A stretch of 32,000 bases of DNA from Candidatus Heimdallarchaeota archaeon B3_Heim (GCA_003144275.1 NJBF01000014.1:55218-87217), one strand, 5' to 3'; shown: positions 8,266-26,747, counted from the stretch's first letter. The notes: generated from the sequence alone by a model not told the origin. Numbers and translations are program-made.

Positions 8266-10866
8266 TTATTTATTTAGGAAGGATTCAATTTCTGAGATTT
8301 CCTTTTTTGTCAGATTGTATAACTGATAGATTACTCGATCAATTTCTTCAATTAAAATATGTTTTTTTTCACTCGGTGAGTTTTGAATTTGTCTTGAAGC
8401 AGTTACTATGTCAATATACTTCTGAGAATCACGGGGTGGTAATACCAGAGGTAGATTTCGAATTTGAAGTGGATAATAATCATACATTCCTCCCAAGTCT
8501 TTAAACATACACCGAGCATAAAACGTAAGTGTTTTTGAATTCAATAAGGCTACTAGGAATAGTAAAGTGTTTGTATCGTTGTAATCTTCGTTAGGGATAA
8601 TCCAAACAACATCCTTTGAGGAAAGACAACCTTGATCATCAATCGCAAAAGTATTCCTCCTTGCTTTGTAGGGGGTAACAATCTTAACTCCTTGCCAATC
8701 CATAGTGTTCCGTTCATCTCCATCTCTCCAGAGGTAATACTTAGTAACTCTACTTCTGTTTAGAAGGTCATCTTTATTATCTTTCAAATACTGATAGGCA
8801 TTCTTTGAATTTCTAATTTGCTCGTGACGAAATTTTGGAGCATATAAGACTTCCATTCCTTCTCGCTTTATGAAAAATGTTTTTATCTCCCCCCCTTTTA
8901 ACCATGGTCTATAGTGAGAGGAATTAAGACGTAAACGCATAGAAAAAAAATAAGGAACTTTGGGAGCAAAAACTTTATCACAACCAGTTTCTATACCTTT
9001 GCTGAGTGATGATATTTCATTTAACCTCCAATTTGACATTCTGATTATTTTTTCAATGGTCTTCTTGGTGTTAAGAGAATACAATGTCCATTTCTCAGAT
9101 TTTAGTCCAATTTGAGATATTTTTTTTCCTTTAATATCCTCAAATTTTGTTTTAGAATACTTATAAGCATGAAGTTCTTCATTAGACGTCCATTTTTTAT
9201 TTTTTAGCAGCATGAAGCAAGTTTTAATATTGATTTGAGGGAAGATAAGCAATTCGTTAAAGTCATGGATTTCAAGGAGAGTTGCTCTACGTATGATAAA
9301 TTCTCTAATTTGCTTAGCATAAACACTGGAAAGAACAGATTTAGGTAAAAGAAATCCTAACACTCCATAGGGACTCAAAATTTGCATCATTCTTTTAGTA
9401 AAGAAGTAGGATAGATCACTGTTTCCGCTATAAATTTCAGGATATATTTTCTTAATCTTTAACCGGGTAACCATTGATAAATCAGTTAACGCTATAAAAG
9501 GAGGATTTCCGATAATAATATGGAATTCTGGGGGAATTTCAGGTTCCTTTATATGATCATTTACAGGAAAACACCAAGGTGTGAGGTCACCAATCAGACT
9601 TTCATTCTTTTGCTGAATTTCGTTGGGAAAGACTATATAAGTATCATTTGATGGACTAAAGTAATCGGATTCTGAAAAATGTACTTTTTTCCTAATGTCC
9701 TCCTCTAAATAGCTCTTACATTCATTCCACTCACGTTTTGTTCCTTCTATAATGAAATAATAAGCATTCATAACTTTGCTAAACTTTCTGTGATAGTCAT
9801 TAATGATTAGAGTTTTTTCATAAAAGGATGATTTAGATGGAAGCTTGTAAACCCCTATTTTCCTATCGAAAGCAGAAGAGTGTTCTTTTCTTGCCTTCGC
9901 TCTGACTTTTGCACTCGACAGTAAGTGATTTTCCCTGTCATTATAACCGAATAAGGAATCTCCTAGATAAATATTGTCAGCTAGATCCCCATACGGCTCG
10001 ATTTCTGACATCCAATCTTCTAATATCCATAATCGTAACTTTATTTTAGTGATGAAGATACCGATAGGATCTTTATCAAACCCATAAAGATTGTGCTCAA
10101 GTATTCTCTTTCGTAGATTAAGAGAGGAGGAATCTAGATCTTTTTTCCTGAAAATACCATACAAAATATTGCCTGCAGCAATTAAAAAGGTGCCTGTTCC
10201 AACAGTAGGATCAAGAAGATATATTTTTTGATTCTTCTTTGTTCTAGTTCCTGATTGTGAATTTATTTTCCACCACTGACCAATTGTCCTTTGGGCTATT
10301 TGCTCAGCGAGGTAATAAGGAGTGTAGACTATTCCATCAATTTTTTTTTCTTCTTCCCCGTATTCTCTTAAAAAATTTGCAATTCTGTCAAAAAGATCAA
10401 AATTTATTGCAGTTAAAGATGAGTCATTTAGACTACTATGATTTTTCTGAAAAAAAGAGTCCTTTAATATCGTTTCAGCATAATCCCCCCAATCTACCGT
10501 CTTTAAAATCTGTAGTTCATTGGCTAGAGGTTTGTTGTAATAGTCAGTAACCTGATCCTGACTTGGTAGAAGAGGAAAATATTTGTTTAATTGAAGGATA
10601 ATGGCATAAGGATCATCAAAATAAGAAAATACCTCTTTCCAGTTCTTAAATTCGTAGTTTAGCGTCTTATTGATATTTTTTATACCAAAGAACATCAGAG
10701 TGATAAAATGAAGAACTAATAAATCCTTAAACCATTGGTTCGAAAAATAGGATACAGAAATTTCAAGATCAAGATGTTTAATTTCTTGGATTAATTGTTT
10801 TATCCTGTTTACAACTGAATTCGACGTTCTCTGTTTTGGATTATATCGCTTCAGCTGAAAAGACAA
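8266..10866 (-). CDS. Second large gamma-class amino-DNA methyltransferase with a TaqI-C-like TRD, no evident nuclease domain
   Basis: GIVYTP, LDPTVGTGTF, IIGNPPF, DLSYFF, KGIETGCDKVF, C-terminal EEIDRVIYQLYNLT. TTG start with GGAGA upstream. Confidence 0.87.
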   Translation of the reverse strand: MSFQLKRYNPKQRTSNSVVNRIKQLIQEIKHLDLEISVSYFSNQWFKDLLVLHFITLMFFGIKNINKTLNYEFKNWKEVFSYFDDPYAIILQLNKYFPLLPSQDQVTDYYNKPLANELQILKTVDWGDYAETILKDSFFQKNHSSLNDSSLTAINFDLFDRIANFLREYGEEEKKIDGIVYTPYYLAEQIAQRTIGQWWKINSQSGTRTKKNQKIYLLDPTVGTGTFLIAAGNILYGIFRKKDLDSSSLNLRKRILEHNLYGFDKDPIGIFITKIKLRLWILEDWMSEIEPYGDLADNIYLGDSLFGYNDRENHLLSSAKVRAKARKEHSSAFDRKIGVYKLPSKSSFYEKTLIINDYHRKFSKVMNAYYFIIEGTKREWNECKSYLEEDIRKKVHFSESDYFSPSNDTYIVFPNEIQQKNESLIGDLTPWCFPVNDHIKEPEIPPEFHIIIGNPPFIALTDLSMVTRLKIKKIYPEIYSGNSDLSYFFTKRMMQILSPYGVLGFLLPKSVLSSVYAKQIREFIIRRATLLEIHDFNELLIFPQINIKTCFMLLKNKKWTSNEELHAYKYSKTKFEDIKGKKISQIGLKSEKWTLYSLNTKKTIEKIIRMSNWRLNEISSLSKGIETGCDKVFAPKVPYFFSMRLRLNSSHYRPWLKGGEIKTFFIKREGMEVLYAPKFRHEQIRNSKNAYQYLKDNKDDLLNRSRVTKYYLWRDGDERNTMDWQGVKIVTPYKARRNTFAIDDQGCLSSKDVVWIIPNEDYNDTNTLLFLVALLNSKTLTFYARCMFKDLGGMYDYYPLQIRNLPLVLPPRDSQKYIDIVTASRQIQNSPSEKKHILIEEIDRVIYQLYNLTKKEISEIESFLNK

Positions 10867-10881
10867 TCTAAATCTCCCGAA

Positions 10882-11286
10882 TCAGCTGTTATTTTTTTCC
10901 TCTATCGGGTTACTTTCCTCTTTTGATAAAGTTTTTTTGATTTTATCGTAGATTGCTACACCAGCCTCTCGCCATTTGCTAGGCTCAGTTTCTTTAACGA
11001 TAATATCTCCTTGTTCAATAAGAGCGATAAATACAGCTGAGATATTTTCTATTATCCATTTTTCAAGTTCACTTTCGTTCATCGATGGAAAAGATGAATT
11101 TGATTGTAGAGCTTGTTCAAAAACCATTTTATGAATCCTACGTGTACTATCCTCTCTAAGATCTTGCCATAATTTTCGAATGAGCTTTCGTTCTCTTACA
11201 CGCAGATCTTCAATTTCCAATAGGCTATTCCAAACATTTGAATTCACATATATGGGGGGTTCTTTTGCTTTTTTTCCTTTACCCAT
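10882..11286 (-). CDS. Hypothetical protein
   Basis: Helical-looking ORF ending 15 nt before the MTase start. ATG 11286 preferred; the ORF track starts at TTG 11310. Confidence 0.65.
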   Translation of the reverse strand: MGKGKKAKEPPIYVNSNVWNSLLEIEDLRVRERKLIRKLWQDLREDSTRRIHKMVFEQALQSNSSFPSMNESELEKWIIENISAVFIALIEQGDIIVKETEPSKWREAGVAIYDKIKKTLSKEESNPIEEKNNS

Positions 11287-11332
11287 TTTACATTCACAAT
11301 CCTTCTGCAAAATTTTGGTTTTTGCCTGATCC

Positions 11333-11593
11333 TCAATACATATAATCCTTTTTACTTTTATGAACTATGAATCGATGAATAATTACAAGCCAAACAAAGC
11401 TCACAATACCCATACCAACAAGTAATAAGGAAATCAAAGTTCTTACCCATGTTGCATCTTGAAATCCTGGAGGACCATCAATATTATCAGGAATGAAATT
11501 TGGAAAAATTAACCCAGCAGAAATCAGCACTATAGCTACTAATAATCCAAGAATTTCGGTGCGAAATTTTTCTAATAGTCGTGAAAGTTGCAT
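11333..11593 (-). CDS. Small two-TM membrane protein
   Basis: Two hydrophobic segments (ILGLLVAIVLISAGLIF; LISLLLVGMGIVSFVWLVII); co-oriented with the two downstream genes. Confidence 0.7.
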   Translation of the reverse strand: MQLSRLLEKFRTEILGLLVAIVLISAGLIFPNFIPDNIDGPPGFQDATWVRTLISLLLVGMGIVSFVWLVIIHRFIVHKSKKDYMY

Positions 11594-12110
11594 AGGATCT
11601 AGACCTCTTTTAAATTCTGGACAAGTCTTATTTAATCACCAAAGTTATACCATTTTTGGCGTTTTATATATGTACTTTCGTAAATAATTGTAATTGTACT
11701 TAATTGTCCTATGGATTTTTAAATCATTCTGGATTCTGGAGCTAATCTCCTTCTTAAAATGGGCCTCTTTATTCAAGGACAGGAGGTATCTTCTGATAGA
11801 TACTCACTTCGTTTTTCTAACAGATCTGTATATCCATATAAGGACTATATAAAGGTAAGGCATTGCCTTTTTAAATACTAAGGCCTGTAAGTACTTTTTT
11901 AAATTGTGTCTACATAGAAGTAATTACGGTTTTCCGTGAAGGGGTTTTTAATTAATTATGATATCTGTAACAAATCCATCTTTAAGAAGAACTGATATCC
12001 AAAATTAAGAAATCAAAAGACTATAATGAAGAAAAAACCAAAAAATGCGATTTTAGATCCATTTTTCCTTTCGTGAAATAGTTGCGTCTTTAAAACTCTG
12101 AGTAGATTCT

Positions 12111-15100
12111 ATGGCAAGTTCAGGACAAGATCGCGGTGTGAGTTTTGGTTATCGTTCATGGTTTAAACCATTTCGATATAATCAACAGCTAATTCAACCC
12201 ATCTTTATTTTGGACTATGAAGCCACTAGTAGAAAAGAAGATGCTTATGAACCTTACTTTGATTCAGAGGATAGTTACGAATCGGGTAGTAAAAAAAGGA
12301 CGATTAATGGTGTTCAGATATATTTTCTTGATGAAGAGCATAACAAACGAAGTGCTTTCTTACGGCACGCACCTTACTTCTATCTGCTAATAACATCTGG
12401 TTTAACGAATAATCAAGTAAATCGCATAATAGCTCGGATTCAGGAGCTGGGGGAGGATAAAATTGTTATGGTCACAAAGGAAAAATGTCACGATGCTGCT
12501 GATCTAACTTTTCTTGTAACTAAGGACTTTCTTAAAGTGACTGTCGATCATCCTAGGTCTGTTCCTAGCTTGAGATCCCAGTGTGAAAAAATAAAAGGTA
12601 TCATTGAATGGAGAGAAGCTGATGTCTTATATAATCATCGAGTAGCTATTGACCATAATATTAGAGTGGGCTCGTGGTATCAAGCTGATATTAATGGAGG
12701 AGAAATTCACAAACTCGATATCTTAAATAATATGGCCCCTCCAGATCTTCAAATTCTTGCTTATGATATAGAAACTGTTTTTGATCAAACTCGTGAACCA
12801 AATCCGAATCGTGATGCAATTTCCATGATTTCATTATTCACGGGCAAGATAAATCATCTGATAATAAATGACGATGTTGTAAACACGAAAGAAGTCTCAG
12901 GCATTGATATCGTGTTGATGCAGAAAGATGAAGATCATTCAAAGCCTTGGGTTGATTGGTGTAAGACGGGCACAACATTTCCTAACTCTTTACTTATTGA
13001 TCGAGTACCAGTAGAGGTACAAGTTTTCAATAATGAACAACAGCTTCTTCATCGATTTTACGAGATAATTGAGGATTACAAACCGGATGTACTGGCTGAT
13101 TTTTTTGGTGATCGTTTTGACATTCCATTTTTAGCTGTTCGCTCATTACTTTACAATATTTCTCTTGAGAGAAGAACTGGTTTTCGTATCAAATTCAAAC
13201 GGGAGTCAACAGGACAAAATACAGGACCCATTGATCTTAGAGAAAACTATTCCCCTGCTAGAATTGATTCAGTGTCGGGAGCAGGAATAATTCATCTTGA
13301 TGCATTTTTATTCAACGAAAAATATAGTTACTTACCTAAAAAAGACTTAGGACTGAAACCGAGTGTTGAAAAGAAGCTTAAGATAATTCCTATTGGTCGG
13401 GAGGCACTTTTTGCAATCGAAGAAAGCCCCGTTGATGCAGTAGGATATGCAGCGTGTGACGGCTATATTACTTACCGGTACGTGAAAGAAATTGTATTAG
13501 ATTTCTTTATTTCCTTGGGACAAATGTTTCCTGTTCCATCGTCAGAATTATTAACACGTCGTGCTGGTTCGCTTGATGATTTGTTAATTGATGCTGAAGG
13601 TCATCATTACAACATAGTTGGAAAACGTCGTATCGATCAAAAACATATTGAGTCTTTCTCTCCTAATATTATGATTGATTCCTTTGCATATACAGGAGGA
13701 CTTGTTGAGGCGAGACGTTCAGGTATTTTTCGAAGTGACATTTATAGGGAAAACAAAACCAATAGAAAAGCATTAACTGAGATCAAATCGCTTATACAGC
13801 AAATTATTGTAAAGAACAGTAAAGATATCGCGAAGAGGGAAATGAAAAACCAATTTGATAGAAAAGTGTTAGAGAAATTTGGTGGTTTATCGATTTCCTA
13901 TTCAGATGACCTAGAACAGTTATTTCAGAATTTTTTCTTAGCTTTACAAGATAAAGGGGTATCTAAATCGCTTTTTGAAGAGAAAAATGATATCTTGCGC
14001 AGTATACTTGAGGATCTTTCCAATATTCGTGTTGAGGGAGTTGAAAAAGTCGTTGAAACTACGCTGAAGCAAGTCGATAAACTTTTGGAAACAACTGGTG
14101 ATGTTCAGCTAAGGGGTGTACATGTAGATGTCACTTCTATGTATCCTTCGCAAATACGTCAATATAAACTTCAGCCTTCAGGTATTGTACCTCTATCAAA
14201 GTGTCAAGTATGTGAATATAGAGAAAATGATGATAGTTGCTTTTTTGAAGGGGACTGGGTAATTAAACTTACCGCTCGTAGACCATGCAAACATAGAGTA
14301 AAGGGATCATCAAAATGTGATCCCTCAATATGTACCACTAAAAATGCATCTTCGTGTAAAGAGTATGAACCAGAACAAGCTACAACTGGGCGAGTTCAGG
14401 AAATATTTTCTTATAATGGTTCTCAAACACAAGCTTATGTGTTGAGAAAAAAGTCAGGATTTGTCAAAATACCGTTAAGTAAATCATATTTAGGTAAAAA
14501 TTTCACCTCTGTTGATCCCTATAATGAAATAACGAAGTGGTTAGAGCATGCAGTAGAAGCAACTCAACTTGGAAGCCATTTAGATAGAAACTTCTTTGAT
14601 ATTTTTGAAGATCAACCAAAATTATTTCAGCTTCCTAAGAATACATATCTAAGTATTGATGTTAGGACAAAAAAGATATCTGTTCTCATTTCTGTTCAAT
14701 CGCGAGTGTGCCAAAAAGCTTTCAATTTTGTAGCCCGAATTATGGATGAATTTTTCAATACACGGGTTAGACATAAATTTGAAGCGCAGCGATTAAAACA
14801 AGTTATCAAACAAAGAAGTGTTAATAATCAGCCAGTTTCACCAGATATGCTTCGTCAACAAAAATTTCATGATAGTACACAGCTAGGCATGAAAGTTCCA
14901 TTAAATAGCATCTATGGTTTATTAGGGATGCGTGGTGGGGTAAGAAATGCCAGCACGCCGTGCGCTGGTATTACTACAAAGTTATCTGCTGATTTAATTC
15001 ATTGGGCTGCAGACCAATTAGAAGATATTGGAAATGTAACAGAGCTAGATACCGATGGAGTTTGGTTATGGGTTCCTAAAGAATTTCCCCTTGATTTTCC

Positions 15101-16535
15101 GGTTACATTGATAAATCCTGTAGAATTAGATGAAAAACTTGAGTTTCGAGTGAGTCTCATTGATAAAATATTAAATGAGAAGGTGTCTAAGGCTGGTTTT
15201 AAAAATGACAACTATTGGATAAACGATGGGGAGAAAATCAAAAAGATCAGTAAAAGTTTAATTCAATTCGAGCAAGATGGACCTTATGATTTTCAATTTG
15301 TCATGGGAAAGAAGAAATATATAGTTTATAATTATCTATCACAGGAGAACAAGTGGGAGGAAGAGGAGATTACAGGGTTGGAATCAAAGAGAGCAGATTT
15401 TTCAAAGTTACAAAAACACTTTCAGGAAGAAGTCATAAAAGCGTATCTAGAGCAGTATGATCCAGTTCATCCCATTGCATTGGAACAGATTTATCAAAAC
15501 GCCTTTAAGGCATCGGATAGAATAAGAAAAGAAGTAATGGATGGGAAAATAGATCCATCATTTTATGTCAAACCTAAGGCTCTTAACAAAGACCTAAAAG
15601 AATATAAGTCAAAATTACCTCAGGTTACTGCAGCCTACATTTTAAAGGATCTTGGTTATTCCATTGATCCAGGAATCCGTATCCAAATGGTTAATATAAA
15701 GGGAAACCACGTTATCCCTGCTCAGGTATTTGATTTTGATTTTAAAAAGGTTAAATCTGTCTTCATTAAACATGGAATATGCACATTAAGTTTTATGCTG
15801 AATGAAATTACCTCGATCGCAGATATCCAACAATTAATCGATACGAAACAGTATTTGAAAGATATTTACGACCCTGGTAGAATTTTTGATCGAATGATAC
15901 AATATCCGATGAAGAATCAACAAATTAAAACAGAAGATCAGCATGTTCTCGATATCCAAGAAATTGAAATCGCCGAGAAAAAGAAAATCCTTGAACAAGA
16001 GTCGGAAGAAATAGGAAAATCACCAGCCAAATCTTCTTCAGTAGAAGGTAAAGTACCACTCCCTCGGCCTGTACATATATCAACCAGATCACGGTTGAAA
16101 AAGTCTAAAAAGAAAAAAGTCAAAACAAAATCTCTTGATACAATTTTTAATTTTCCAAAAGCAGCTAAAGCTCAACCTAGTCAGCGTCGGAAAAAAATTA
16201 TTAAGCCTACTAAGCCTGTAACAAAACCCTCCCTAGGGAATAAGTTAATGAAGACTATACTTCATAATGAAAAGGGGCTAAGTTCTCCTAAATCTGGTTT
16301 GGTAAATTCTAGTAAACAAAAATCAACTTTAGTATCGACTGATGAAATTGAGGAATTAGAAGAAAAAGAGTTGTTTACTAATGGTAATAAAATTGAGGTA
16401 AAATCATCTTTTTCTCAAGTTGATGTGCAAGCGGATGAAGAAATCGTATGTAGCCTGTGTGGGGCTTTCATAAGTCCTACAGAAGTCATTGATGAAGGGT
16501 GTATCTATTGCCATGACCAACCAGTTACTGAATGA
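12111..16535 (+). CDS. polB: Family B DNA polymerase, DNA polymerase epsilon catalytic-subunit-like
   Basis: Pol2-like N-terminus (YFLDEE, PYFYL, HRVAIDHNIRVGSWY); ExoI YDIET, ExoII GDRFDIPF, ExoIII YAACDG; YTGGLVE..SGIFRSD; region II HVDVTSMYPS; region III KVPLNSIYG; region I ELDTDGVW; FEQDGPY; KKKY; CysX cysteines at C698/C701/C710/C867. Confidence 0.93.
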   Translation: MASSGQDRGVSFGYRSWFKPFRYNQQLIQPIFILDYEATSRKEDAYEPYFDSEDSYESGSKKRTINGVQIYFLDEEHNKRSAFLRHAPYFYLLITSGLTNNQVNRIIARIQELGEDKIVMVTKEKCHDAADLTFLVTKDFLKVTVDHPRSVPSLRSQCEKIKGIIEWREADVLYNHRVAIDHNIRVGSWYQADINGGEIHKLDILNNMAPPDLQILAYDIETVFDQTREPNPNRDAISMISLFTGKINHLIINDDVVNTKEVSGIDIVLMQKDEDHSKPWVDWCKTGTTFPNSLLIDRVPVEVQVFNNEQQLLHRFYEIIEDYKPDVLADFFGDRFDIPFLAVRSLLYNISLERRTGFRIKFKRESTGQNTGPIDLRENYSPARIDSVSGAGIIHLDAFLFNEKYSYLPKKDLGLKPSVEKKLKIIPIGREALFAIEESPVDAVGYAACDGYITYRYVKEIVLDFFISLGQMFPVPSSELLTRRAGSLDDLLIDAEGHHYNIVGKRRIDQKHIESFSPNIMIDSFAYTGGLVEARRSGIFRSDIYRENKTNRKALTEIKSLIQQIIVKNSKDIAKREMKNQFDRKVLEKFGGLSISYSDDLEQLFQNFFLALQDKGVSKSLFEEKNDILRSILEDLSNIRVEGVEKVVETTLKQVDKLLETTGDVQLRGVHVDVTSMYPSQIRQYKLQPSGIVPLSKCQVCEYRENDDSCFFEGDWVIKLTARRPCKHRVKGSSKCDPSICTTKNASSCKEYEPEQATTGRVQEIFSYNGSQTQAYVLRKKSGFVKIPLSKSYLGKNFTSVDPYNEITKWLEHAVEATQLGSHLDRNFFDIFEDQPKLFQLPKNTYLSIDVRTKKISVLISVQSRVCQKAFNFVARIMDEFFNTRVRHKFEAQRLKQVIKQRSVNNQPVSPDMLRQQKFHDSTQLGMKVPLNSIYGLLGMRGGVRNASTPCAGITTKLSADLIHWAADQLEDIGNVTELDTDGVWLWVPKEFPLDFPVTLINPVELDEKLEFRVSLIDKILNEKVSKAGFKNDNYWINDGEKIKKISKSLIQFEQDGPYDFQFVMGKKKYIVYNYLSQENKWEEEEITGLESKRADFSKLQKHFQEEVIKAYLEQYDPVHPIALEQIYQNAFKASDRIRKEVMDGKIDPSFYVKPKALNKDLKEYKSKLPQVTAAYILKDLGYSIDPGIRIQMVNIKGNHVIPAQVFDFDFKKVKSVFIKHGICTLSFMLNEITSIADIQQLIDTKQYLKDIYDPGRIFDRMIQYPMKNQQIKTEDQHVLDIQEIEIAEKKKILEQESEEIGKSPAKSSSVEGKVPLPRPVHISTRSRLKKSKKKKVKTKSLDTIFNFPKAAKAQPSQRRKKIIKPTKPVTKPSLGNKLMKTILHNEKGLSSPKSGLVNSSKQKSTLVSTDEIEELEEKELFTNGNKIEVKSSFSQVDVQADEEIVCSLCGAFISPTEVIDEGCIYCHDQPVTE

Positions 16536-16799: not shown

Positions 16800-19025
16800 A
16801 TGGAAAATATCCAAAAATTACAGAAATATGGCTCATTAGAAAGCTTTGCACTTGATCAAACAGAAGAATTTCTTCGACCAAAGACCCCCCTAGATTATAT
16901 TTTTACTCTTGCACTCATTTTCTGGTGTATTGTAGCTGTGATATTTTCTGGTGATTCACCTATACGAGCAACATTATTTGGACTTGTTCTCATTTTATTT
17001 TTCGTAATTCCTATTTCTAAATTCTTTTCAAATGATGAGAGAGATATTCCTTCCCCACTTAATAGGGCGGTGAAAATACTCATCGGATTTCTCATCATTA
17101 ACATTTTTTCGTCAGCCTCTGTCACTTTTGAACTCTGGGATATGAATTTTCCAGATTTAACGTATTACGAATTTGAATCTTTGATGGCGTGCATTCTCAC
17201 TCCACTAGCAATTATTTGGAATAGATTCGATTTGAAAACCTTACAATTCGGCTATTTTTATTATGTTGGTGAAGTATTCCGTGGTTTTTGGATAGCTACT
17301 ATAGTCATTTTCATATTAAAGGGTTTTTCCATCCCGTTTTTACCTGCAAGTTTCAATTTCGAATTAGAACTATTACTTCTTGCTGCTCTCACATTTAATA
17401 TCCTCGGGATTATTCTGCCTGGTAACTCACCAAGACAAAATGTTTCAATAAATACTCTTCTACGTCAGAATTTTGCACTGAAGAATAGAGTAGAAAGGAT
17501 TCGTGATGGATTCCTCTCTTCATCTGTAATTCTACTGGCATTCTTGTGGCTTGGTTGGATAGTAAACAGAAAAGAAGTCATTCAATATTTAGCGTTTTTC
17601 TTCTTGATAATTGGGGTGTTACTCTTATTGGCACCTCAAAGAAAAAGAACTAATGGGCTAAATTCAGTTCTTAATTCGCTTACAGGTAAGATTGTTGATC
17701 CTAACAGTCAAGTTGGTAGTCGAATTAATGAATTCGCAAGTGCTATTCAGGAAACATCCTTTGAGAAACCTGCACGAGTTTTTACTATCCCAACAGATGA
17801 CATGAAGATAATAAGCAAAGGTAAAACGTCCATTTCAGCTAAAAAAGGGGTAATAGCGGTCCCTACTGTTACAGAAAAAGGAACAACTCTTGTTTTAATG
17901 GGAAAATCTGAGGTATCGACAGAAACAGAAGAACAAGAGGTGTCTACCAAAGAAGTCGATGGCACAACAACAGTCTGGGTTCCACCTGAAGAATGGGATC
18001 AGATTAAACTTCAGCTCCAATCGAAAAATGTCAGTGAACTAACTGAAAATGAGTTAATGTCTGCAGGCCTTGATTCAGCTTCTGAATTATTCACTAATGT
18101 CAAACAAGCAATATCTCAATTAAAAGACTGGAAGGGCCCTCAAGGGATTTTTTCTTCGGTATTTGATACAACTCCATCAAAATATACCATCACAGAAACT
18201 AAAGATTATACATTAGTACGATTACCAGGAATCTTTGTTTTTGAAAAGCTCGGAGTTGAGCTTGTTCAGATATTAGGAGGAGTAGTTCAAGTTGTAGAGA
18301 TAAAAGGGGTAGGAGAATATGTCAAAATTCTCGGAGGGTTGATTACCGTTTTGGAAACTCCCGATTACTCCTTCGTACAAACACCATTTGTGTCTGTATT
18401 GGAAACTCCTGCAGGGGAAATTGTAAAAGTTTTTGGTATACGTATACAAGATGGAGAAAAAATAGATTTGAACAAAGCTCGCAAAGAAATTACGATGGCT
18501 CAAGAAAGGTTTGATAGCCTCTTTACTGCTCAAGTGGAAACTCTTTTCTCAGGCGAAATGCCGAATTTGCTGTTAACAAACTCTGAGGGGGAAAAGGAAG
18601 GTTTCTTAATTGGTGACTCTGAATATCTAAGTGATCAGGATGTACAACCAAAACGAAAAAGCAGAAAAGAAGATACAAAATCAACTTCCTCAAAGAAGAT
18701 AATAGGCCCTTCAGTTTTTACAAAAACAATTACTATAGGACCACAGACTGACCAAAAAACCGAGGAAAAACAAAAAATTCAGCCAGTAGAATATCAGTAT
18801 GATGAGGAGGGTATTCCAATTGATCATCCCGAGCTTTTATCATTGGATAACGATCTAGCTCAAGTTGAGGATTCTTTGGAAAAAGCAGATGAAAAATTTC
18901 TTAATGACGAAGTATCAGATCAAAAACATGAGGAAATCATTAAGCGATTAACACTGAAAAAGTCTAGAATAACAAAAGAACGGGAAAAATTAGTGGAAAA
19001 AATCAGGTTAAGATTTGTTGATTAA
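16800..19025 (+). CDS. Hypothetical membrane protein: ~8 N-terminal TM helices, soluble region with beta-hairpin-like repeats, C-terminal helical hairpin
   Basis: About eight hydrophobic segments in the first ~280 aa, five 16-19 aa repeats at 18198-18456, and a charged helical C-terminus. Confidence 0.8.
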   Translation: MENIQKLQKYGSLESFALDQTEEFLRPKTPLDYIFTLALIFWCIVAVIFSGDSPIRATLFGLVLILFFVIPISKFFSNDERDIPSPLNRAVKILIGFLIINIFSSASVTFELWDMNFPDLTYYEFESLMACILTPLAIIWNRFDLKTLQFGYFYYVGEVFRGFWIATIVIFILKGFSIPFLPASFNFELELLLLAALTFNILGIILPGNSPRQNVSINTLLRQNFALKNRVERIRDGFLSSSVILLAFLWLGWIVNRKEVIQYLAFFFLIIGVLLLLAPQRKRTNGLNSVLNSLTGKIVDPNSQVGSRINEFASAIQETSFEKPARVFTIPTDDMKIISKGKTSISAKKGVIAVPTVTEKGTTLVLMGKSEVSTETEEQEVSTKEVDGTTTVWVPPEEWDQIKLQLQSKNVSELTENELMSAGLDSASELFTNVKQAISQLKDWKGPQGIFSSVFDTTPSKYTITETKDYTLVRLPGIFVFEKLGVELVQILGGVVQVVEIKGVGEYVKILGGLITVLETPDYSFVQTPFVSVLETPAGEIVKVFGIRIQDGEKIDLNKARKEITMAQERFDSLFTAQVETLFSGEMPNLLLTNSEGEKEGFLIGDSEYLSDQDVQPKRKSRKEDTKSTSSKKIIGPSVFTKTITIGPQTDQKTEEKQKIQPVEYQYDEEGIPIDHPELLSLDNDLAQVEDSLEKADEKFLNDEVSDQKHEEIIKRLTLKKSRITKEREKLVEKIRLRFVD

Positions 19026-19059: not shown

Positions 19060-21000
19060 TTATGAGATGATTAATGCTTTTAGATCTGAAATTATTGCCT
19101 CAATTTGATATTTTGATTCAGCTAAAATGAATAGATCATTTTTCAATTGCAATTTGCGAATTCGATCCCTCAGAACTTTTTGAATTTCGTCCTGGGAGTC
19201 TAATGCGTTATTTTCAGCCCATTCTATTAATAATGTAACTGAACGGGTGAAATATTCTACCGTTTCCCTTTCTTTTTGGTTCATCAGGGATACTAAACCT
19301 GCGTTATGATATATTGTACTACTCCGTCTCCAACTAATCAGTGCGTTGGTCAGAGACCGATTTCTTTGGTTTAAGATAGAATCTGTCTCCTCCATATTTG
19401 ATAAAATTTCAAATGCGGTGTAAAAATTGCTCGCAGCTTCTTCAAAATTTTCTATATTAAAGGAATTGTTTGCAAAGAGAATTAACACAGGAATTAATTC
19501 AGTTGCAGGAGCTTTGGCAATAGTAAGTAGTTTTTTTGATCGGGAGAGACAATCTCTGGATAGTAAATAGTGATTTTTTTCCATTTCAATCCGTCCAATT
19601 TCATAAGTTATCAACCCTAACAATCGTTGTAGAAGTTCATCGCATTGATCTTCAGGAAGGATGGAAGCAGCATTATTTAATAATGATAATTTTGATTCTA
19701 TATTTTTTACCGTTTGAGCACCATCATACAACGTTTTAAGAGCTGATTGGAAATTGTCCACACGTTTAAATAATGAGGAAGCATGTATTACAAGAGTTAT
19801 TCCTTTGTTTTCATTTTCTAAGGAAAAATATACTTTAGCAGCTAGCATTAAAGATGTAGCAGCTTCCTCGAGCCCTTCATCACTCTTTTTAAGGAAATCA
19901 GCAGCTCTGATTCTTTGTTCAGCAGATTTACGCGTCAAGCCGAGGGCATATGCTGGATTTTCTAGTTTTTCCTTTTCCGCTTGGAGCATTAACTTACTGG
20001 CATATGTCGAAGTATATCTTGCCGCAATCTGACTATCAATTTCTTCAATCAACTTTACTGCTTTCTCAAAACATCCGTTTGCTTCTTCAAAATGATTGAG
20101 ATCTTGATATACTAGTGCCATATCATACTGTATTGAAGCTTGCGATTTAGGGTCTTTTATCCAGACAGCTCCACTTTGAAACAATTCAATTGCATGATCA
20201 TTATCACCTAATTGATACGCCATTTTTCCTGCTAAACAGAAAGCCTGTCCTGACTTTTGAAAATCATGAGCTCTAGAGAAAGCATCAGTAGCTTGTTTGA
20301 AAGCATTTTGTGCATCTTGGAAGTTGTTAGCGGCTTGGAAAATGTTCCCAGATAAAATAAATGCTTCACCCGCTGCTTTATCATCAATATTTTCTAACCG
20401 ATTAGCCACTTTCATAGCTGTCCAAAGTTGATTACGATCTTTGAGTTTATACCATGCCTCACTTGCTGTTTGTAAATCTTTAAGGGCACGAGGAATAGCG
20501 TAATCCGAATCTATATCGGTAGGATCAAATTGGGGTTTTTTCAACGGAGGGTCGCTAATTGAATCTGTAATTTTTTGCCATACTAATCTTGCATTAAAGG
20601 CATCTTTTTCTTCCTTTAATATATCTAAATATGTAAAAATATGTGTATCAAGATGTGTATTTAAAAGATTTGCACTGTCGTGTTTACCAATTATAGCTAG
20701 AAAAAATGGTCGTTCTTCTCCACGAATTGAAGGATCAAACCATGCATCAAATGCCACTCGGGCGAGAATATTTTGTCCTAAACTCAACAAAGGAACACTA
20801 AATTCAGTCCTCTGAGATTGGCCATGTTGACCAAAAACTGTTACTGAAGCTAAATATATTTGTAATGCTATTGATTCAGGGTCGTCGAAAGCCAATGGAT
20901 ATAGAGAAATTATCGATGGTCCCGAGATGTCGTCCCATAGAACCGCTAATATCACATGGTTAAACTGCTGCATATCAAAATGAGGTGAGCTTTCGGACAA
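19060..21000 (-). CDS. uDENN/longin-like N-terminal domain fused to alpha-SNAP-like TPR repeats
   Basis: N-terminus ILAVLWDDISGPSIISLYP ... DPSIRGEERPFFLAII, then helical repeats such as AAGEAFILSGNIFQAANNFQDAQNAFKQA. Start is TTG 21000 (abutting the upstream stop) or ATG 20973. Confidence 0.75.
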   Translation of the reverse strand: MSESSPHFDMQQFNHVILAVLWDDISGPSIISLYPLAFDDPESIALQIYLASVTVFGQHGQSQRTEFSVPLLSLGQNILARVAFDAWFDPSIRGEERPFFLAIIGKHDSANLLNTHLDTHIFTYLDILKEEKDAFNARLVWQKITDSISDPPLKKPQFDPTDIDSDYAIPRALKDLQTASEAWYKLKDRNQLWTAMKVANRLENIDDKAAGEAFILSGNIFQAANNFQDAQNAFKQATDAFSRAHDFQKSGQAFCLAGKMAYQLGDNDHAIELFQSGAVWIKDPKSQASIQYDMALVYQDLNHFEEANGCFEKAVKLIEEIDSQIAARYTSTYASKLMLQAEKEKLENPAYALGLTRKSAEQRIRAADFLKKSDEGLEEAATSLMLAAKVYFSLENENKGITLVIHASSLFKRVDNFQSALKTLYDGAQTVKNIESKLSLLNNAASILPEDQCDELLQRLLGLITYEIGRIEMEKNHYLLSRDCLSRSKKLLTIAKAPATELIPVLILFANNSFNIENFEEAASNFYTAFEILSNMEETDSILNQRNRSLTNALISWRRSSTIYHNAGLVSLMNQKERETVEYFTRSVTLLIEWAENNALDSQDEIQKVLRDRIRKLQLKNDLFILAESKYQIEAIISDLKALIIS

Positions 21001-22782
21001 TTAGATAATCTCCATGAATTTAAGTTTAAGATGTCTGATGTCAATTAAAGCCTTTTTAGAATCTGAACTAGTTTCTAGCATTTGGATTTCCTTGACATTC
21101 TTAATCTCAATCGTAGGTGATAGAGGTGTAAATGATTCTTGGCCAGACATACGTATAATTATGAAAATTTTTTCTTTTGACTCCAAATTCCAGGTTAAGA
21201 GAGAATTTGATTTTTCTCGAACTATGGTCGGCCGAAGATGTATTGGATCAACAAGAGATATACTATAATCAAGTGGTATGCGATCAATTAACGTGATTTC
21301 ATTGGTTGACATATTTTCAATTGTATACATCCAAATGTACTCACAATCAAATGAATCTATAAGTGGTTGTGAAATTTTATTACAGGTGAGTTTACCTGGA
21401 TCAGTTTCAACTTCAGTTATATAGTGGCGAGTTAACGGTTTCTCCTTAAAAACATAATTTGAGGAAAAAGTATCACCAGGGGGTAGATTACTAAATATCC
21501 ATCTAAATAAAGTTGAATCATGTGTTGGAATCCTAACAGGACGAATTTTTTGAGGAGAATACGCTTGATTCACAACTAATTCTGGAGGGATAACGTCTTC
21601 AATCAGTATTTCTTGGATAGCTCCTCCTGTTGTATTAACGAAGTTCAATTGAGCCTCTAAATTCTGATGCAAGGAATGGTATAAATTCAAAACTACAACT
21701 TGACGTTCTTTTCGGAGTATGATCGATCTTTCTACTCGTTTACGTAACACATACTCAATGGTGCCTGTTTTTCCTGGGATCAGTTTTTCAGCTTTCCAAG
21801 TGAATACTGTTCCTTCCTTTGTTTTTTTTCTGTTGTTTAATTCAAAATCTGTCTGGAAATCGACTACTTCCCACCTATATGGAATTCGATCTACTACTTC
21901 AATATCTACGAGGTCTTCTTCGTATTCATTTGTAATTTCCGTTTTAGCAGCATATTCGAGGTCTAAAGTGTCAGTAACATTCATACGTTCTGTAGAAGGT
22001 GCTTCATCTTGTAAATGTTCTGTATCTTCAACTTTTGAGTCTAATTTTGACTCCGTTTCTTTATCTGCCTCCTTTACTTTATTGATGCTGATTTTAGGGT
22101 TAATAGATGATCTTGGTGACAAAAATTTTGTTTCTCCCCTTTGATCTTTTACTACAGCATCACTTCTTATTTTCTTGTCTGATTTTTTTCTTACATTTTC
22201 CGAGACTGCAGCTAATACTGCGAAGGAATTCATTTTAGAGGGATCATCAGTCTTTAATTGAGGGACAATAAAATCTTGACGATTGAAATCAATATCAGTA
22301 TTATTCACATAATCACCGTCATCAAGAGGTAATAAATCTTCTTCTTCCTCCAGAGGTAATATCTTGATATCTGGAAGCTCTTCCTCAATATCAGTATGAG
22401 CAGATTCATCCTCTTCCTGAATGTTTTCCTCATCTGCAGATATTTTTCGTTCTAGGGCATTTAATGCCATCTTAAATTGATAAGTTGCAGAAGTAAAACC
22501 ATATTCTTTTCCCTTATCGACAAGAATTTTCGCTGTTTCAATATCTTCAGTCATTAGATGCCTAACGATAGCTTTTCCATAACAACTGGCAGCCTTATCC
22601 ATTTTCTTAATTTCTAGATAGAAATCTCCAGCAATGGTTAGATATTGGCCTGCTTTTCTTCTGTTACCTTTTGAATCGAAGCATTTAGCTGTTGATTCAT
22701 AGATTTCTGCGGCAATCACCAGAGAGTGGCTAGTAGCGGTTTCAGCTTCCGTTGCTAATTGTTCACAACTTATTTCTGTCAT
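21001..22782 (-). CDS. SNAP-like helical N-terminus, acidic disordered linker, three DUF11-like Ig/beta-sandwich domains
   Basis: AAEIYESTAKCF...KAASCYGKAI; a D/E-rich linker; three ~100-aa units marked by IEVVDRIP, ILIEDVIP and ITLIDRIP, each with a downstream F/L-x-W. ATG 22782 preferred over TTG 22812. Confidence 0.75.
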   Translation of the reverse strand: MTEISCEQLATEAETATSHSLVIAAEIYESTAKCFDSKGNRRKAGQYLTIAGDFYLEIKKMDKAASCYGKAIVRHLMTEDIETAKILVDKGKEYGFTSATYQFKMALNALERKISADEENIQEEDESAHTDIEEELPDIKILPLEEEEDLLPLDDGDYVNNTDIDFNRQDFIVPQLKTDDPSKMNSFAVLAAVSENVRKKSDKKIRSDAVVKDQRGETKFLSPRSSINPKISINKVKEADKETESKLDSKVEDTEHLQDEAPSTERMNVTDTLDLEYAAKTEITNEYEEDLVDIEVVDRIPYRWEVVDFQTDFELNNRKKTKEGTVFTWKAEKLIPGKTGTIEYVLRKRVERSIILRKERQVVVLNLYHSLHQNLEAQLNFVNTTGGAIQEILIEDVIPPELVVNQAYSPQKIRPVRIPTHDSTLFRWIFSNLPPGDTFSSNYVFKEKPLTRHYITEVETDPGKLTCNKISQPLIDSFDCEYIWMYTIENMSTNEITLIDRIPLDYSISLVDPIHLRPTIVREKSNSLLTWNLESKEKIFIIIRMSGQESFTPLSPTIEIKNVKEIQMLETSSDSKKALIDIRHLKLKFMEII

Positions 22783-22798
22783 TATTGATTCTCCCAAC

Positions 22799-23182
22799 CT
22801 ATTTAATCGCAACGAAGGTAGATTTTATAATCAACACTTCGGAAACTCGTGGTGTATAGTCATCTAACGGATCTTTATCATCATAAGGAATTTCTTGGAA
22901 TGTACGGGAGAAAATTACCCAGGCAACTCTTTTATTATCACTTGTGACAAATCGTTTTATTTTTTGATACGCATCCTCTGGTTCATCTTGAAAATATTTG
23001 ATAGACAAATCTTTTACTTTTTGCAGAGAGGTTTTTTCCTGATCTTGTGCATATAAATGCATACTTTCTAACAGATCGGCTTCTTTTGGATTTATTTTTT
23101 TTTCTTTTAACATTTCGACTATTAAGGATCGATTTGTTAAAGAATTCTTTGCCTCTGCAAAAGTTACATTGATAAATGGCAT
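22799..23182 (-). CDS. Hypothetical protein, first gene of the three-gene cluster
   Basis: 127-codon ATG ORF ending 16 nt before the next ATG; no motif recognised. Confidence 0.7.
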   Translation of the reverse strand: MPFINVTFAEAKNSLTNRSLIVEMLKEKKINPKEADLLESMHLYAQDQEKTSLQKVKDLSIKYFQDEPEDAYQKIKRFVTSDNKRVAWVIFSRTFQEIPYDDKDPLDDYTPRVSEVLIIKSTFVAIK

Positions 23183-23411
23183 TACATATAACCATTAACT
23201 TCAGGTAATTCCAGCTTGTTAGTTTTATTGAATATTCGTGATGTTTTAACTTGTGATTTATCGTATAAATCAAGAAATCTCTGAATTATATACTTAGCTA
23301 AACCTATCGAATGAAGAGAGAAATATCATGATAGGAAAAACCGTCCAATTTTCAGAAAATTCCAAAAAATGTCTTAAATAAACCCCCAATGGCTATAAAT
23401 AGGAGATTTAT

Positions 23412-25575: not shown

Positions 25576-26439
25576 TTACTCGAGGTTTATTCCCAAGAAA
25601 GTGTTTCCAGGACATGTGTAATAGATAGAATAACTTGCAGCGATTGGTATTTCTAGATCATCAAGAGCCTGCACGGAATTCATGTTTGGGGATAAATAAA
25701 TCACAAATATTGGTGTCGCTGTTTTGCAAGTAGCTGTTTTCGTATTTCTTTTAATGGAATATAGTACGATTTTTCCTTCGGTGGCAGCTGATGATGCATG
25801 AAGCATCGTGAGAGTTGTTTCAGATTTAGATGCGGGGTACAAAAGTTTTGCTTTCGAATTTGTCACTTCTGAATCTTCATCTGCAGCAAAATATAAGATT
25901 GAAGTTTCTTTTTCTTCTTTCAGCTCAACACGTTCTTTGGCCTTAACTTCTTTCGGTTTGGTTTTTGAAATTGGTGGAGGAGGAGGGGAAACAGGTTTTA
26001 TTACTTTTTCTCCCTTACTTTTATCCGTAGCTATCTTAGCTTTTTTAGGTTGTGCTGTTTTAGGGGGAGGGGCTATTTCTTTTATAGACGCGGCTTGTAC
26101 TGCAGGTGTTACGTCTAGTAACGAACTAGGGGACACAGGTGACGCTTCTAGCCGTATCATAAAATCTTTGAATTTTATCGTCTCGTTTCCTTGATCTTCA
26201 GTGGAAATTCTATGGGTCATTCCTTTTTCAAGACGCATTTGTCGTGCTATTTGACTAGAGATGAAGCGTTTTCTAACAGATGAATTTTCTCCTGTCCAAA
26301 TATAGATTTGTCTTTTTTCCTCATCAAGAAAGATTAACACTTCTGTGTCTTTTAGATCTTCAGCGCGAGAGGTAAACTTAACAGGAACATATTCCCCATC
26401 CATACTCGGGACGTATACGTGAAATTTGCTTTCAGTCAT
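25576..26439 (-). CDS. Single gelsolin-like domain, Pro/Lys-rich linker and an unknown C-terminal domain
   Basis: LKDTEVLIFLD..IYIWTGENSS...EDQGNETIKF matches the gelsolin repeat pattern; linker contains APPPK and SPPPPP. ATG 26439 preferred (GAAGGA upstream). Confidence 0.82.
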   Translation of the reverse strand: MTESKFHVYVPSMDGEYVPVKFTSRAEDLKDTEVLIFLDEEKRQIYIWTGENSSVRKRFISSQIARQMRLEKGMTHRISTEDQGNETIKFKDFMIRLEASPVSPSSLLDVTPAVQAASIKEIAPPPKTAQPKKAKIATDKSKGEKVIKPVSPPPPPISKTKPKEVKAKERVELKEEKETSILYFAADEDSEVTNSKAKLLYPASKSETTLTMLHASSAATEGKIVLYSIKRNTKTATCKTATPIFVIYLSPNMNSVQALDDLEIPIAASYSIYYTCPGNTFLGINLE

Positions 26440-26747
26440 AAATAATCCTTCTAACATCAAAAACAAGTGCTTCCTCTAAAAACATTTTGAAATATCATAA
26501 TCCTAAATCCGAATCTCAGTTCAATATTGCTTCCTTGTGGACGTATTTCTTAAAATTTTATTTGAAAAGGAGGAAAAACAAAACGCGTTTTGATTATTTT
26601 AGTTTTTACTTGGATTGGGGAAACTACTACTCCATTTCAACGCAAAAAAAATCTATTATCGGAGTATTACAAGAAATTTACCAAAACGAAATAATTTTAA
26701 TTTATCAAGTTTTACTGAATTATTGTCTTTAAGGTGGTTGACTTTAC

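Follow-up and report, generated by a model that had tools for sequence, protein, structure and literature searches.

Three adjoining genes in a 32,000-nucleotide (nt) stretch of DNA from Candidatus Heimdallarchaeota archaeon B3_Heim (GCA_003144275.1, NJBF01000014.1:55218-87217; C23:55218-87217 in our contig numbering) had been predicted, from the sequence alone, to encode an undescribed trafficking or GTPase-regulatory module. We refer to the whole stretch as the window and to the three gene products as P1, P2 and P3. The source genome (3.9 Mb, 94% complete) belongs, judged from the names borne by near-identical proteins, to the Hodarchaeales (Heimdallarchaeia, Asgard), in a genus that also holds Ca. 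Hodarchaeum mangrovi, and the question raised by the locus is whether the three genes form a conserved unit and what such a unit might do. In our best reading, P1-P2-P3 is the Hodarchaeales version of a two-protein Asgard module, which consists of a P2-type beta-sandwich protein and a P3-type protein with a longin domain and tetratricopeptide repeats (TPR). That the three proteins form a conserved Asgard longin complex regulating a small Arf/Rag-family GTPase, probably as a GTPase-activating protein (GAP), appears to us an evenly balanced proposition.

Three genes packed like an operon

The genes and their spacers were located as follows, with positions counted from the first nucleotide of the window.

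22799..23182, minus strand: P1, 127 amino acids (aa), ATG start; soluble, restricted to Hodarchaeales, predicted P2-binding accessory subunit
22783..22798, minus strand: P1-P2 spacer, 16 nt, with a GGGAG Shine-Dalgarno-like motif, read from the sequence
21001..22782, minus strand: P2, 593 aa from ATG
19060..21000, minus strand: P3, 646 aa from TTG; alternative ATG at 20973
23183..23411, no strand: divergent intergenic region between P1 and a NUDIX gene, from the gene map; presumed promoter region of the P1-P2-P3 unit

The co-orientation and the gaps of 16 and 0 nt, with which the original prediction began, were borne out. The stop codon TAG of P1 is followed by the 16 nt with GGGAG and then by the ATG of P2, and the TAA of P2 (21001-21003) directly abuts the TTG of P3. 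A start of P3 at the ATG at 20973, where distant orthologues begin, would give a gap of 27 nt, and the second gap is hence 0 or 27 nt; in the nine extra codons between TTG and ATG, three of four changes seen in a close relative are non-synonymous. With either start of P3 the genes are packed like an operon, and in several orthologues the stop of P1 even overlaps the start of P2. An in-frame TTG at 22812 would extend P2 into P1; the orthologues begin near the P2 ATG. Judged by the conservation of their sequences, P1, P2 and P3 are real genes.

A predicted FLCN/SMCR8/NPRL2-type longin domain at the start of P3

The first 170 residues of P3 were folded by AlphaFold2 (AF2) using an alignment of orthologues and paralogues, which led to a model with a predicted local distance difference test (pLDDT) of 80.7 and the beta-beta-alpha-beta-beta-beta-alpha-alpha topology of longin domains. 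DSSP assigned strands to residues 15-23, 27-34, 65-70, 78-88 and 96-106, and helices to residues 41-59, 107-134 and 137-149. The domain and its motifs map as follows.

20551..20958, minus strand: P3 longin domain, residues 15-150 (AF2, VIA, Foldseek, ESM Atlas)
20917..20937, minus strand: P3 W22-D23-x3-G27-P28, the WD and GP motifs in the beta1/beta2 turn (invariance in alignments)
20710..20724, minus strand: P3 R93-G94...R97 in the beta4/beta5 loop, with R93 as candidate arginine finger

Foldseek gave as best match 8yqg, the longin domain of a Lokiarchaeial Roadblock-Longin protein (E 9e-5), followed by GATOR1, the SEA complex, FLCN-FNIP2 and Lst4. In VIA, a structure search independent of Foldseek, 8yqg was matched with Z 13.6 over 131 residues and a root-mean-square deviation (rmsd) of 2.8 Å, Lst4 with Z 11.1 (123 aa), the FLCN complex with Z 10.7 (129 aa), GATOR1 with Z 9.6, the SEA complex with 9.3 and C9orf72 with 9.1. 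The longins of SNARE, TRAPP and AP proteins ranked lower (Z about 8), and roadblock domains reached Z 7-8. Neighbours in the ESM Atlas were a Heimdallarchaeial cluster partly annotated as Folliculin (template modelling score, TM, 0.72), Asgard fusions of longin and Arf GTPase domains (0.72) and, among eukaryotic proteins, SMCR8 (0.71) and NPRL2 (0.67). According to these models the N-terminal domain of P3 is an FLCN/SMCR8/NPRL2-type longin, as used by eukaryotic GTPase regulators.

For longin GAPs a signature has been described that is made up of a GP motif preceding beta2, the C9orf72 WD motif and an arginine finger close by; other longins lack the GAP-longin motifs, and one class of Heimdallarchaeial longins has them (PMC12290439, Traffic 2025). 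In P3, W22-D23-x3-G27-P28 is invariant in all 24 aligned sequences, R93-G94 is likewise invariant in the alignment, and W, D, G and P together with R93 are found in every one of 19 full-length representatives of P3-like clusters. When 1.84 billion representatives were searched exhaustively by profile, 320 relatives of the longin domain were obtained. In this wider family the same five positions are conserved at 90-100%, with D23 at 83-85% in two groups. When the family profile was searched against the PDB (177,635 sequences), the sole plausible match was the longin domain of C9orf72, covered over its whole length and with WD-x3-GP in register with W33-D34...G38-P39, at a non-significant E of 0.08-0.18. 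C9orf72 has Asn at the position of R93, and P3 therefore joins a turn of the C9orf72 type to an arginine of the SMCR8/FLCN type. In the AF2 model the order of strands in the sheet puts the beta4/beta5 loop with R93 beside the beta1/beta2 turn. The arginine fingers of longin GAPs are R164 in FLCN, R78 in NPRL2 and R147 in SMCR8, and R93 is a candidate counterpart of one of these. The WD-GP-Arg signature points to a GAP.

P3 is the only member of its longin family found in the source genome. When short relatives of the domain were sought by a word-indexed search, nothing but fragments of P3 orthologues came up.

The remainder of P3 is a TPR solenoid (19063..20478, minus strand; residues ~175-646; from Pfam, the PDB profile search and the alignment). 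Residues 207-405 match the Pfam models TPR_2, TPR_12 and SNAP, the PDB profile search gave TPR proteins only (profile positions 192-352), and the rest of the solenoid was recognised as helical repeats by alignment. P3 had been expected to be a longin/DENN regulator. The longin part of this claim holds by fold searches and motifs, and the DENN part was rejected: no DENN family was matched, DENND1 ranked low in the fold searches, and TPR repeats, not cDENN/dDENN, come after the longin domain.

The triad and its P2/P3 core across Asgard archaea

Orthologues of P1, P2 and P3 were found in about 20 of the 21 genomes of the genus (45-93% identity) and, at 25-44% identity, in a second family of the order, where they occur in two genera, with the order P1-P2-P3 kept throughout at the loci where the genes adjoin. 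Within the genus the synteny of the triad weighs little, because the whole neighbourhood is syntenic, the block being composed of a gelsolin-like gene, HMG-CoA reductase, NUDIX, the triad, a 741-aa membrane protein and a family-B DNA polymerase (PolB). At two loci the flanks differ. In genome G022 a nucleotidyl transferase gene, not the membrane-protein gene, comes after P2-P3. The metagenomic contig L074 carries a more divergent triad (P1 138 aa, P2 666 aa, P3 644 aa), for which the upstream genes differ from the genus block and a convergent PolB gene again comes after the triad. Co-location in relatives, by which the prediction could be checked, was thus found even where the flanks differ. 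For the convergent gene of the membrane protein, which had been considered as a further part of the module, such a role is not supported beyond the genus: it is a neighbour within the genus only, and the loci of G022, G023 and L074 lack it next to the module.

A phylum-wide profile search with full-length P3 was swamped by TPR proteins, and only matches covering both longin and TPR were counted. Full-length P3-like proteins also occur outside Heimdallarchaeia, with a P2-like gene just upstream. Ca. Lokiarchaeum ossiferum (CP104013.1) encodes, all in the same orientation and separated by 40 and 25 nt, a P2-like protein of 847 aa (E 2e-39), a P3-like protein of 684 aa and an Arf-family GTPase of 166 aa (Pfam Arf, 91 bits). 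At another, Lokiarchaeial locus (L058) the P2-like and P3-like genes are followed by an Rce1-like protease gene (11192-12067), with an Arf-domain gene in convergent orientation; further P2-like/P3-like pairs were found on L065 and L066. At L053/L063 (L053:1-8073, GCA_048941265.1) two P2-like genes are followed by two longin-TPR genes, which would supply the longin heterodimer used by known longin GAPs. A P3-like gene is convergent with a gene for a helix-turn-helix (HTH)-Arf/RagA GTPase on L052, and one further P3-like gene adjoins three GTPase genes. A TPR-only relative is paired with a P2-like gene on L067, L069, L070 and L071; at two of these loci a GTPase gene lies 1.4-3.7 kb away. The conserved unit that had been proposed is hence seen also as a P2/P3 pair kept across Asgard classes.

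How much the GTPase neighbours mean may be judged from the source genome, in which 51 GTPase genes in 3.9 Mb place about 5% of all positions within 1.5 kb of one. Against this background three immediate GTPase neighbours among about eight distant loci are suggestive, in a small sample of loci that are not independent. A GTPase-regulatory context, as first proposed, is consistent with these Arf/Rag-like GTPase genes adjoining relatives of the module.

Some features of these loci were noted in passing. An Rce1-like CAAX protease gene also lies two genes upstream of P1-P2 in G023 (L030:698-1588); the recurrence of such a gene near the module may be chance, because the family is widespread. The P2-like protein of L. 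ossiferum (L057:6417-8960) has a weak gelsolin-like N-terminus (E 0.025), and in the window, 2.4 kb upstream of P1 and syntenic within the genus, lies the gene of a 296-aa protein with a weak gelsolin-repeat match (25576-26466, minus strand; E 0.0028). By sequence similarity, a link of the module to the actin system is possible. Lokiarchaeial open reading frames (ORFs) of about 1125-1146 aa begin, in several genomes, with the same GP-type longin (for example G301:C208:15668-16081 and G197:C107:4056-4481) and represent a third architecture of the family.

P2 combines a SNAP-like head with beta-sandwiches and is predicted to bind P1

The AF2 model of P2 (pLDDT 76.5) was divided as follows.

22402..22782, minus strand: P2 residues 1-127, six-helix SNAP/Sec17-like TPR-type domain (AF2, VIA, Pfam)
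22090..22401, minus strand: P2 residues 128-231, acidic linker and small alpha/beta unit, part of the conserved core of the family (alignment, AF2)
21055..21957, minus strand: P2 residues 276-576, three DUF11-like beta-sandwiches (AF2, Pfam, ESM Atlas)

The head was matched in VIA by Sec17 (Z 15.9) and gamma-SNAP (Z 15.8) ahead of generic TPR proteins (Z 10-13), and residues 1-120 lie on the N-terminal hairpins of Sec17/gamma-SNAP with an rmsd down to 1.5 Å over 92 residues. These structural matches span SNAP residues 1 to about 130 only; the complete profile runs to about 280 residues and takes in the C-terminal bundle. The Pfam SNAP model (PF14938) scored 15.1 bits for P2, at a cut-off of 25 and over profile positions 33-83, and is matched weakly by 19 of the 31 members of the P2 family (best E 2.4e-5). 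The same cut-off is exceeded by P3 (28.9 bits; profile positions 33-170 of 282), for which generic TPR models give still higher scores. Of the SNAP-like repeats that had been claimed for two of the three genes, those of P3 are therefore above the cut-off and better described as TPR, and those of P2 fall below it, yet the P2 head is nearest to Sec17/gamma-SNAP by structure.

The acidic linker holds 21 D/E in 48 residues and a conserved LPDIxILP motif, the alpha/beta unit comprises residues 164-229, and residues 232-273 are disordered. It is in the region of residues 128-231 that the profile matches to Lokiarchaeial homologues begin. The alpha/beta unit was also considered as a hidden second longin and rejected, as no profile similarity to longins was found. 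The beta-sandwich part extends over about 300 residues with a helix at its end. Its neighbours in the ESM Atlas are DUF11/CARDB domains, and the Pfam model DUF11 (PF01345) is matched by three distant members of the 31 in the family (best E 6.5e-7); the P2 of the window itself does not match this model. Residues 276-576 look DUF11-like in motif pattern and predicted fold. With full-length P2, Foldseek returned the mu homology domains (MHDs) of delta-COP and AP-4 mu weakly (E ~1e-2, probability 0.63-0.77). For the beta region this full-length model gave no clear fold: the Foldseek matches were weak and mixed (ribophorin, integrin legs, the large subunits of TRAPPII and MHDs, E 1e-3 to 1e-2), and the VIA lists were occupied by the helical head. 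The description of P2 as adaptor-like finds its support in such weak fold matches only.

A collection of 5.8 billion proteins contained 76 homologues of P2, all unnamed and called 'hypothetical protein'. P2-like proteins of 520-556 aa occur across Heimdallarchaeia, usually behind a protein of about 200 aa which resembles the P2 head (hhalign probability 94%). P1 was tried as a relative of these ~200-aa proteins and rejected (hhalign probability 0.2%). Antisense within P2, an ORF of 141 aa (21719-22144, plus strand) is seen again in close relatives; it mirrors the conservation of P2 and is therefore most likely a shadow ORF.

P1 had been called an orphan, and this applies insofar as no family was detected for it in Pfam, the PDB profile search or the ESM Atlas. 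It does have orthologues throughout the Hodarchaeales, and only there; 16 of them could be aligned (34-94% identity, 17 invariant residues). Its contacts were predicted with three chains (P1, P2 and the P3 longin domain), with P1 being scored and our own alignments being used. The interface score ipSAE for P1-P2 was 0.70 (runs 0.69, 0.78 and 0.70), whereas the best of three controls reached 0.00. A value of 0.70 was attained by 58 of 80 solved complexes and by 2 of 110 mismatched pairs, counts that hold only roughly here because three chains and our own alignments were used. At least 87% of the contacts were common to the runs, and the pLDDT of P1 was at least 80. In the predicted complex the C-terminal strands of P1 pair with P2 strand 451-459 and touch residues 563-584, the P1 helices contact the SNAP-like head, and on the side of P2 the second and third beta-sandwiches take part. 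P1 would thus clamp both ends of P2. No P1 contacts with the P3 longin chain were listed, which gives no verdict on P1-P3. Of the stoichiometric complex originally suggested, an interface between P1 and P2 is accordingly predicted, and P1 may be regarded as a putative accessory subunit that binds P2.

A putative GTPase regulator and its alternatives

From these data the following mechanism can be proposed. The longin domain of P3 belongs, by its predicted fold and motifs, to the longin class on which the catalytic platforms of FLCN-FNIP, GATOR1 (NPRL2-NPRL3) and C9orf72-SMCR8 are built, and would dock on an Arf/Rag-family GTPase encoded elsewhere in the genome, where there are about 50 candidates. 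Arg93, beside the WD-GP turn, would then most likely speed up GTP hydrolysis, so that P3 would act as GAP rather than as guanine nucleotide exchange factor (GEF). The TPR solenoid and P2, to which P3 presumably binds, may serve as scaffold or cargo-binding parts, with P1 clamping the SNAP-like head of P2 to its beta-sandwiches. A further-reaching version, in which the P2-like/longin-TPR pair (with P1 in Hodarchaeales) would be a native Arf-family GAP complex and a forerunner of the FLCN-FNIP, GATOR1 and C9orf72-SMCR8 platform, is tentative and on balance doubtful. In this version a single longin would carry the WD-GP motifs of the C9orf72 type and the arginine of the SMCR8/FLCN type, and the TPR solenoid would take the place of DENN.

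Several points weigh against a regulator of Arf/Rag-family GTPases. P3 shows no significant sequence likeness to eukaryotic GAP longins, no Folliculin, NPR2 or C9orf72 model was matched in a Pfam scan with E up to 1, and R93 is no more than a candidate arginine finger. To our knowledge all longin GAPs use a longin heterodimer, and the operon encodes no second longin subunit; most longin complexes, moreover, are GEFs and not GAPs. There is no GTPase gene in the window or beside the triad at the Hodarchaeales loci examined, with the partial exception of L074, where an Arf-like GTPase gene lies about 2.2 kb upstream; on the source contig the nearest one is about 22 kb away. The triad itself is split in G023, where P1-P2 are together and P3 is on another contig, and in the Heimdallarchaeial families f3-f5 P2-like genes were found and no full-length P3-like gene in those searched. 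The binding of P3 to P2 and a role at membranes are presumed in the mechanism; for the latter, put forward in the original prediction, nothing places the proteins there, and P1, P2 and P3 have no transmembrane segment. Finally, the longin is also used as an output domain of response regulators (see below), and may accordingly have partners other than GTPases in some cases.

The best-surviving alternative would do without a GTPase. The module could be a scaffold or adaptor in which P2 and P3 use their TPR/SNAP-like surfaces to capture helical or acidic peptide clients, for instance as a co-chaperone or a SNAP-type adaptor for AAA+ ATPases, with the longin serving for dimerisation or docking only. 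In its favour, the Hodarchaeales triad has no GTPase gene beside it, SNAP and TPR are the only family matches at the level of sequence, and P2, whose head is closest to Sec17/gamma-SNAP, carries a conserved acidic linear motif such as TPR domains bind. However, the likeness of P2 to SNAP is confined to the first third of a SNAP and scores under the Pfam cut-off, genes of the AAA+ or SNARE-like kind are not linked to the module, and the invariant WD-GP and Arg motifs would be left unexplained, as would the repeated Arf/Rag GTPase neighbours and fusions. We regard this explanation as unlikely.

Even less probable is a sensor or output domain of a two-component-type pathway, in which P3 would be the TPR scaffold and no GTPase would be acted upon. 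It is suggested by the commonest relatives of the P3 longin, which are response regulators of about 290-305 aa consisting of a receiver (REC) domain and a longin and adjoining histidine kinase genes, and by PAS/LOV domains lower down in the Foldseek results. The latter reach a TM of 0.25-0.3 only, compared with Z 9-13.6 for longins, and neither a kinase nor a REC gene is found near the triad. REC-longin genes with a WD-GP-Arg longin as output domain (products of about 295-310 aa) occur next to histidine kinase genes in the same genus (L033:2469-3350, L035:1752-3623, L036:1168-3042), and no REC-longin response regulator was found in the source genome. The gene on L033 itself adjoins a gene for a 462-aa RagA/Arf-like GTPase, which also argues against a pathway free of GTPases; REC fusions may therefore put a GTPase regulator under phosphorelay control.

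That the three genes are mere neighbours without common function, as could be argued from the synteny of the entire genus neighbourhood, is highly improbable, given a triad kept in G022 and L074, a P2/P3 pair kept across Asgard classes, typical spacers of 0 to 40 nt with overlapping stop and start codons, and the predicted P1-P2 interface with controls at 0.00.

Further genes of the window

Within the first 280 residues of the convergent 741-aa protein (16800-19025, plus strand) lie about eight hydrophobic segments; its C-terminal part is large and soluble, and Pfam gave weak matches only (DUF4131, TgpA_N). The family-B DNA polymerase (12111-16535, plus strand; 1474 aa) contains about 630 residues between the Pfam matches for exonuclease and polymerase; this stretch could be an insertion or a divergent intein, and no intein family was matched at E up to 0.01. 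Two convergent genes (5754-8252, plus strand, and 8266-10866, minus strand) encode proteins of 832 and 866 aa, both with Eco57I/N6-DNA-methylase domains and one of them also with a TaqI-like specificity domain, and look like type IIG-like restriction-modification genes.

Relation to known systems and implications

The longin GAPs FLCN-FNIP (Lst7-Lst4), GATOR1 NPRL2-NPRL3 and C9orf72-SMCR8-WDR41 are the best-ranking eukaryotic structural matches of P3 (Z 9-11), and P3 resembles them in its WD and GP motifs ahead of beta2 and in having, in a neighbouring loop, an arginine that is conserved (PMC12290439). Arf/Rag-family GTPases are clients of the eukaryotic complexes and genomic neighbours of the P3-like module. 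The differences are considerable: the longin of P3 is followed by a TPR solenoid and not by a DENN domain, a second longin subunit is missing from the operon, P3 has as its partners one beta-sandwich protein and one small protein specific to the lineage, sequence likeness is non-significant, and the GAP role of P3 is putative. The same domain class and motifs are seen in the Asgard GP-motif longins of the FLCN/SMCR8 type (PMC12290439) and in 8yqg, which unlike the longin-TPR fusion of P3 were reported as single longin-domain proteins. Compared with the SNAP family (alpha/gamma-SNAP, Sec17), P2 covers about one third and is without the NSF-engaging C-terminal bundle, P3 scores above the SNAP cut-off of Pfam yet is fitted better by generic TPR models, and SNARE or NSF context is absent from the module. 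DUF11/CARDB repeats resemble P2 residues 276-576; DUF11 repeats are typically found in surface proteins, from which P2 differs in having neither a signal peptide nor a transmembrane segment.

The label 'undescribed' has to be restricted accordingly. The longin domain class and its motifs are already known, in Heimdallarchaeia since 2025 (PMC12290439), whereas the operon and its partners were not found in the searchable literature. The same is true, in the accessible literature, of the longin-TPR architecture, the beta-sandwich partner, the Hodarchaeales P1 and the L. ossiferum operon with its Arf GTPase.

Asgard archaea possess dozens of Arf-, Rag- and Rab-like GTPases. In an experimental study from 2025 the native regulators of Asgard Arf proteins were still to be identified (PMC11914678). 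As a possible native regulator of Asgard GTPases of the Arf/Rag-like kind, the module described here is a concrete and testable candidate. Ca. Lokiarchaeum ossiferum is in culture and its operon itself names the likely client GTPase, so that the question can be tested with three recombinant proteins. Hodarchaeales are among the closest relatives of eukaryotes in recent phylogenies. If true, the proposal would place such a GAP platform in this order and would show what lysosome-linked GAP platforms were like before DENN domains and longin heterodimers arose.

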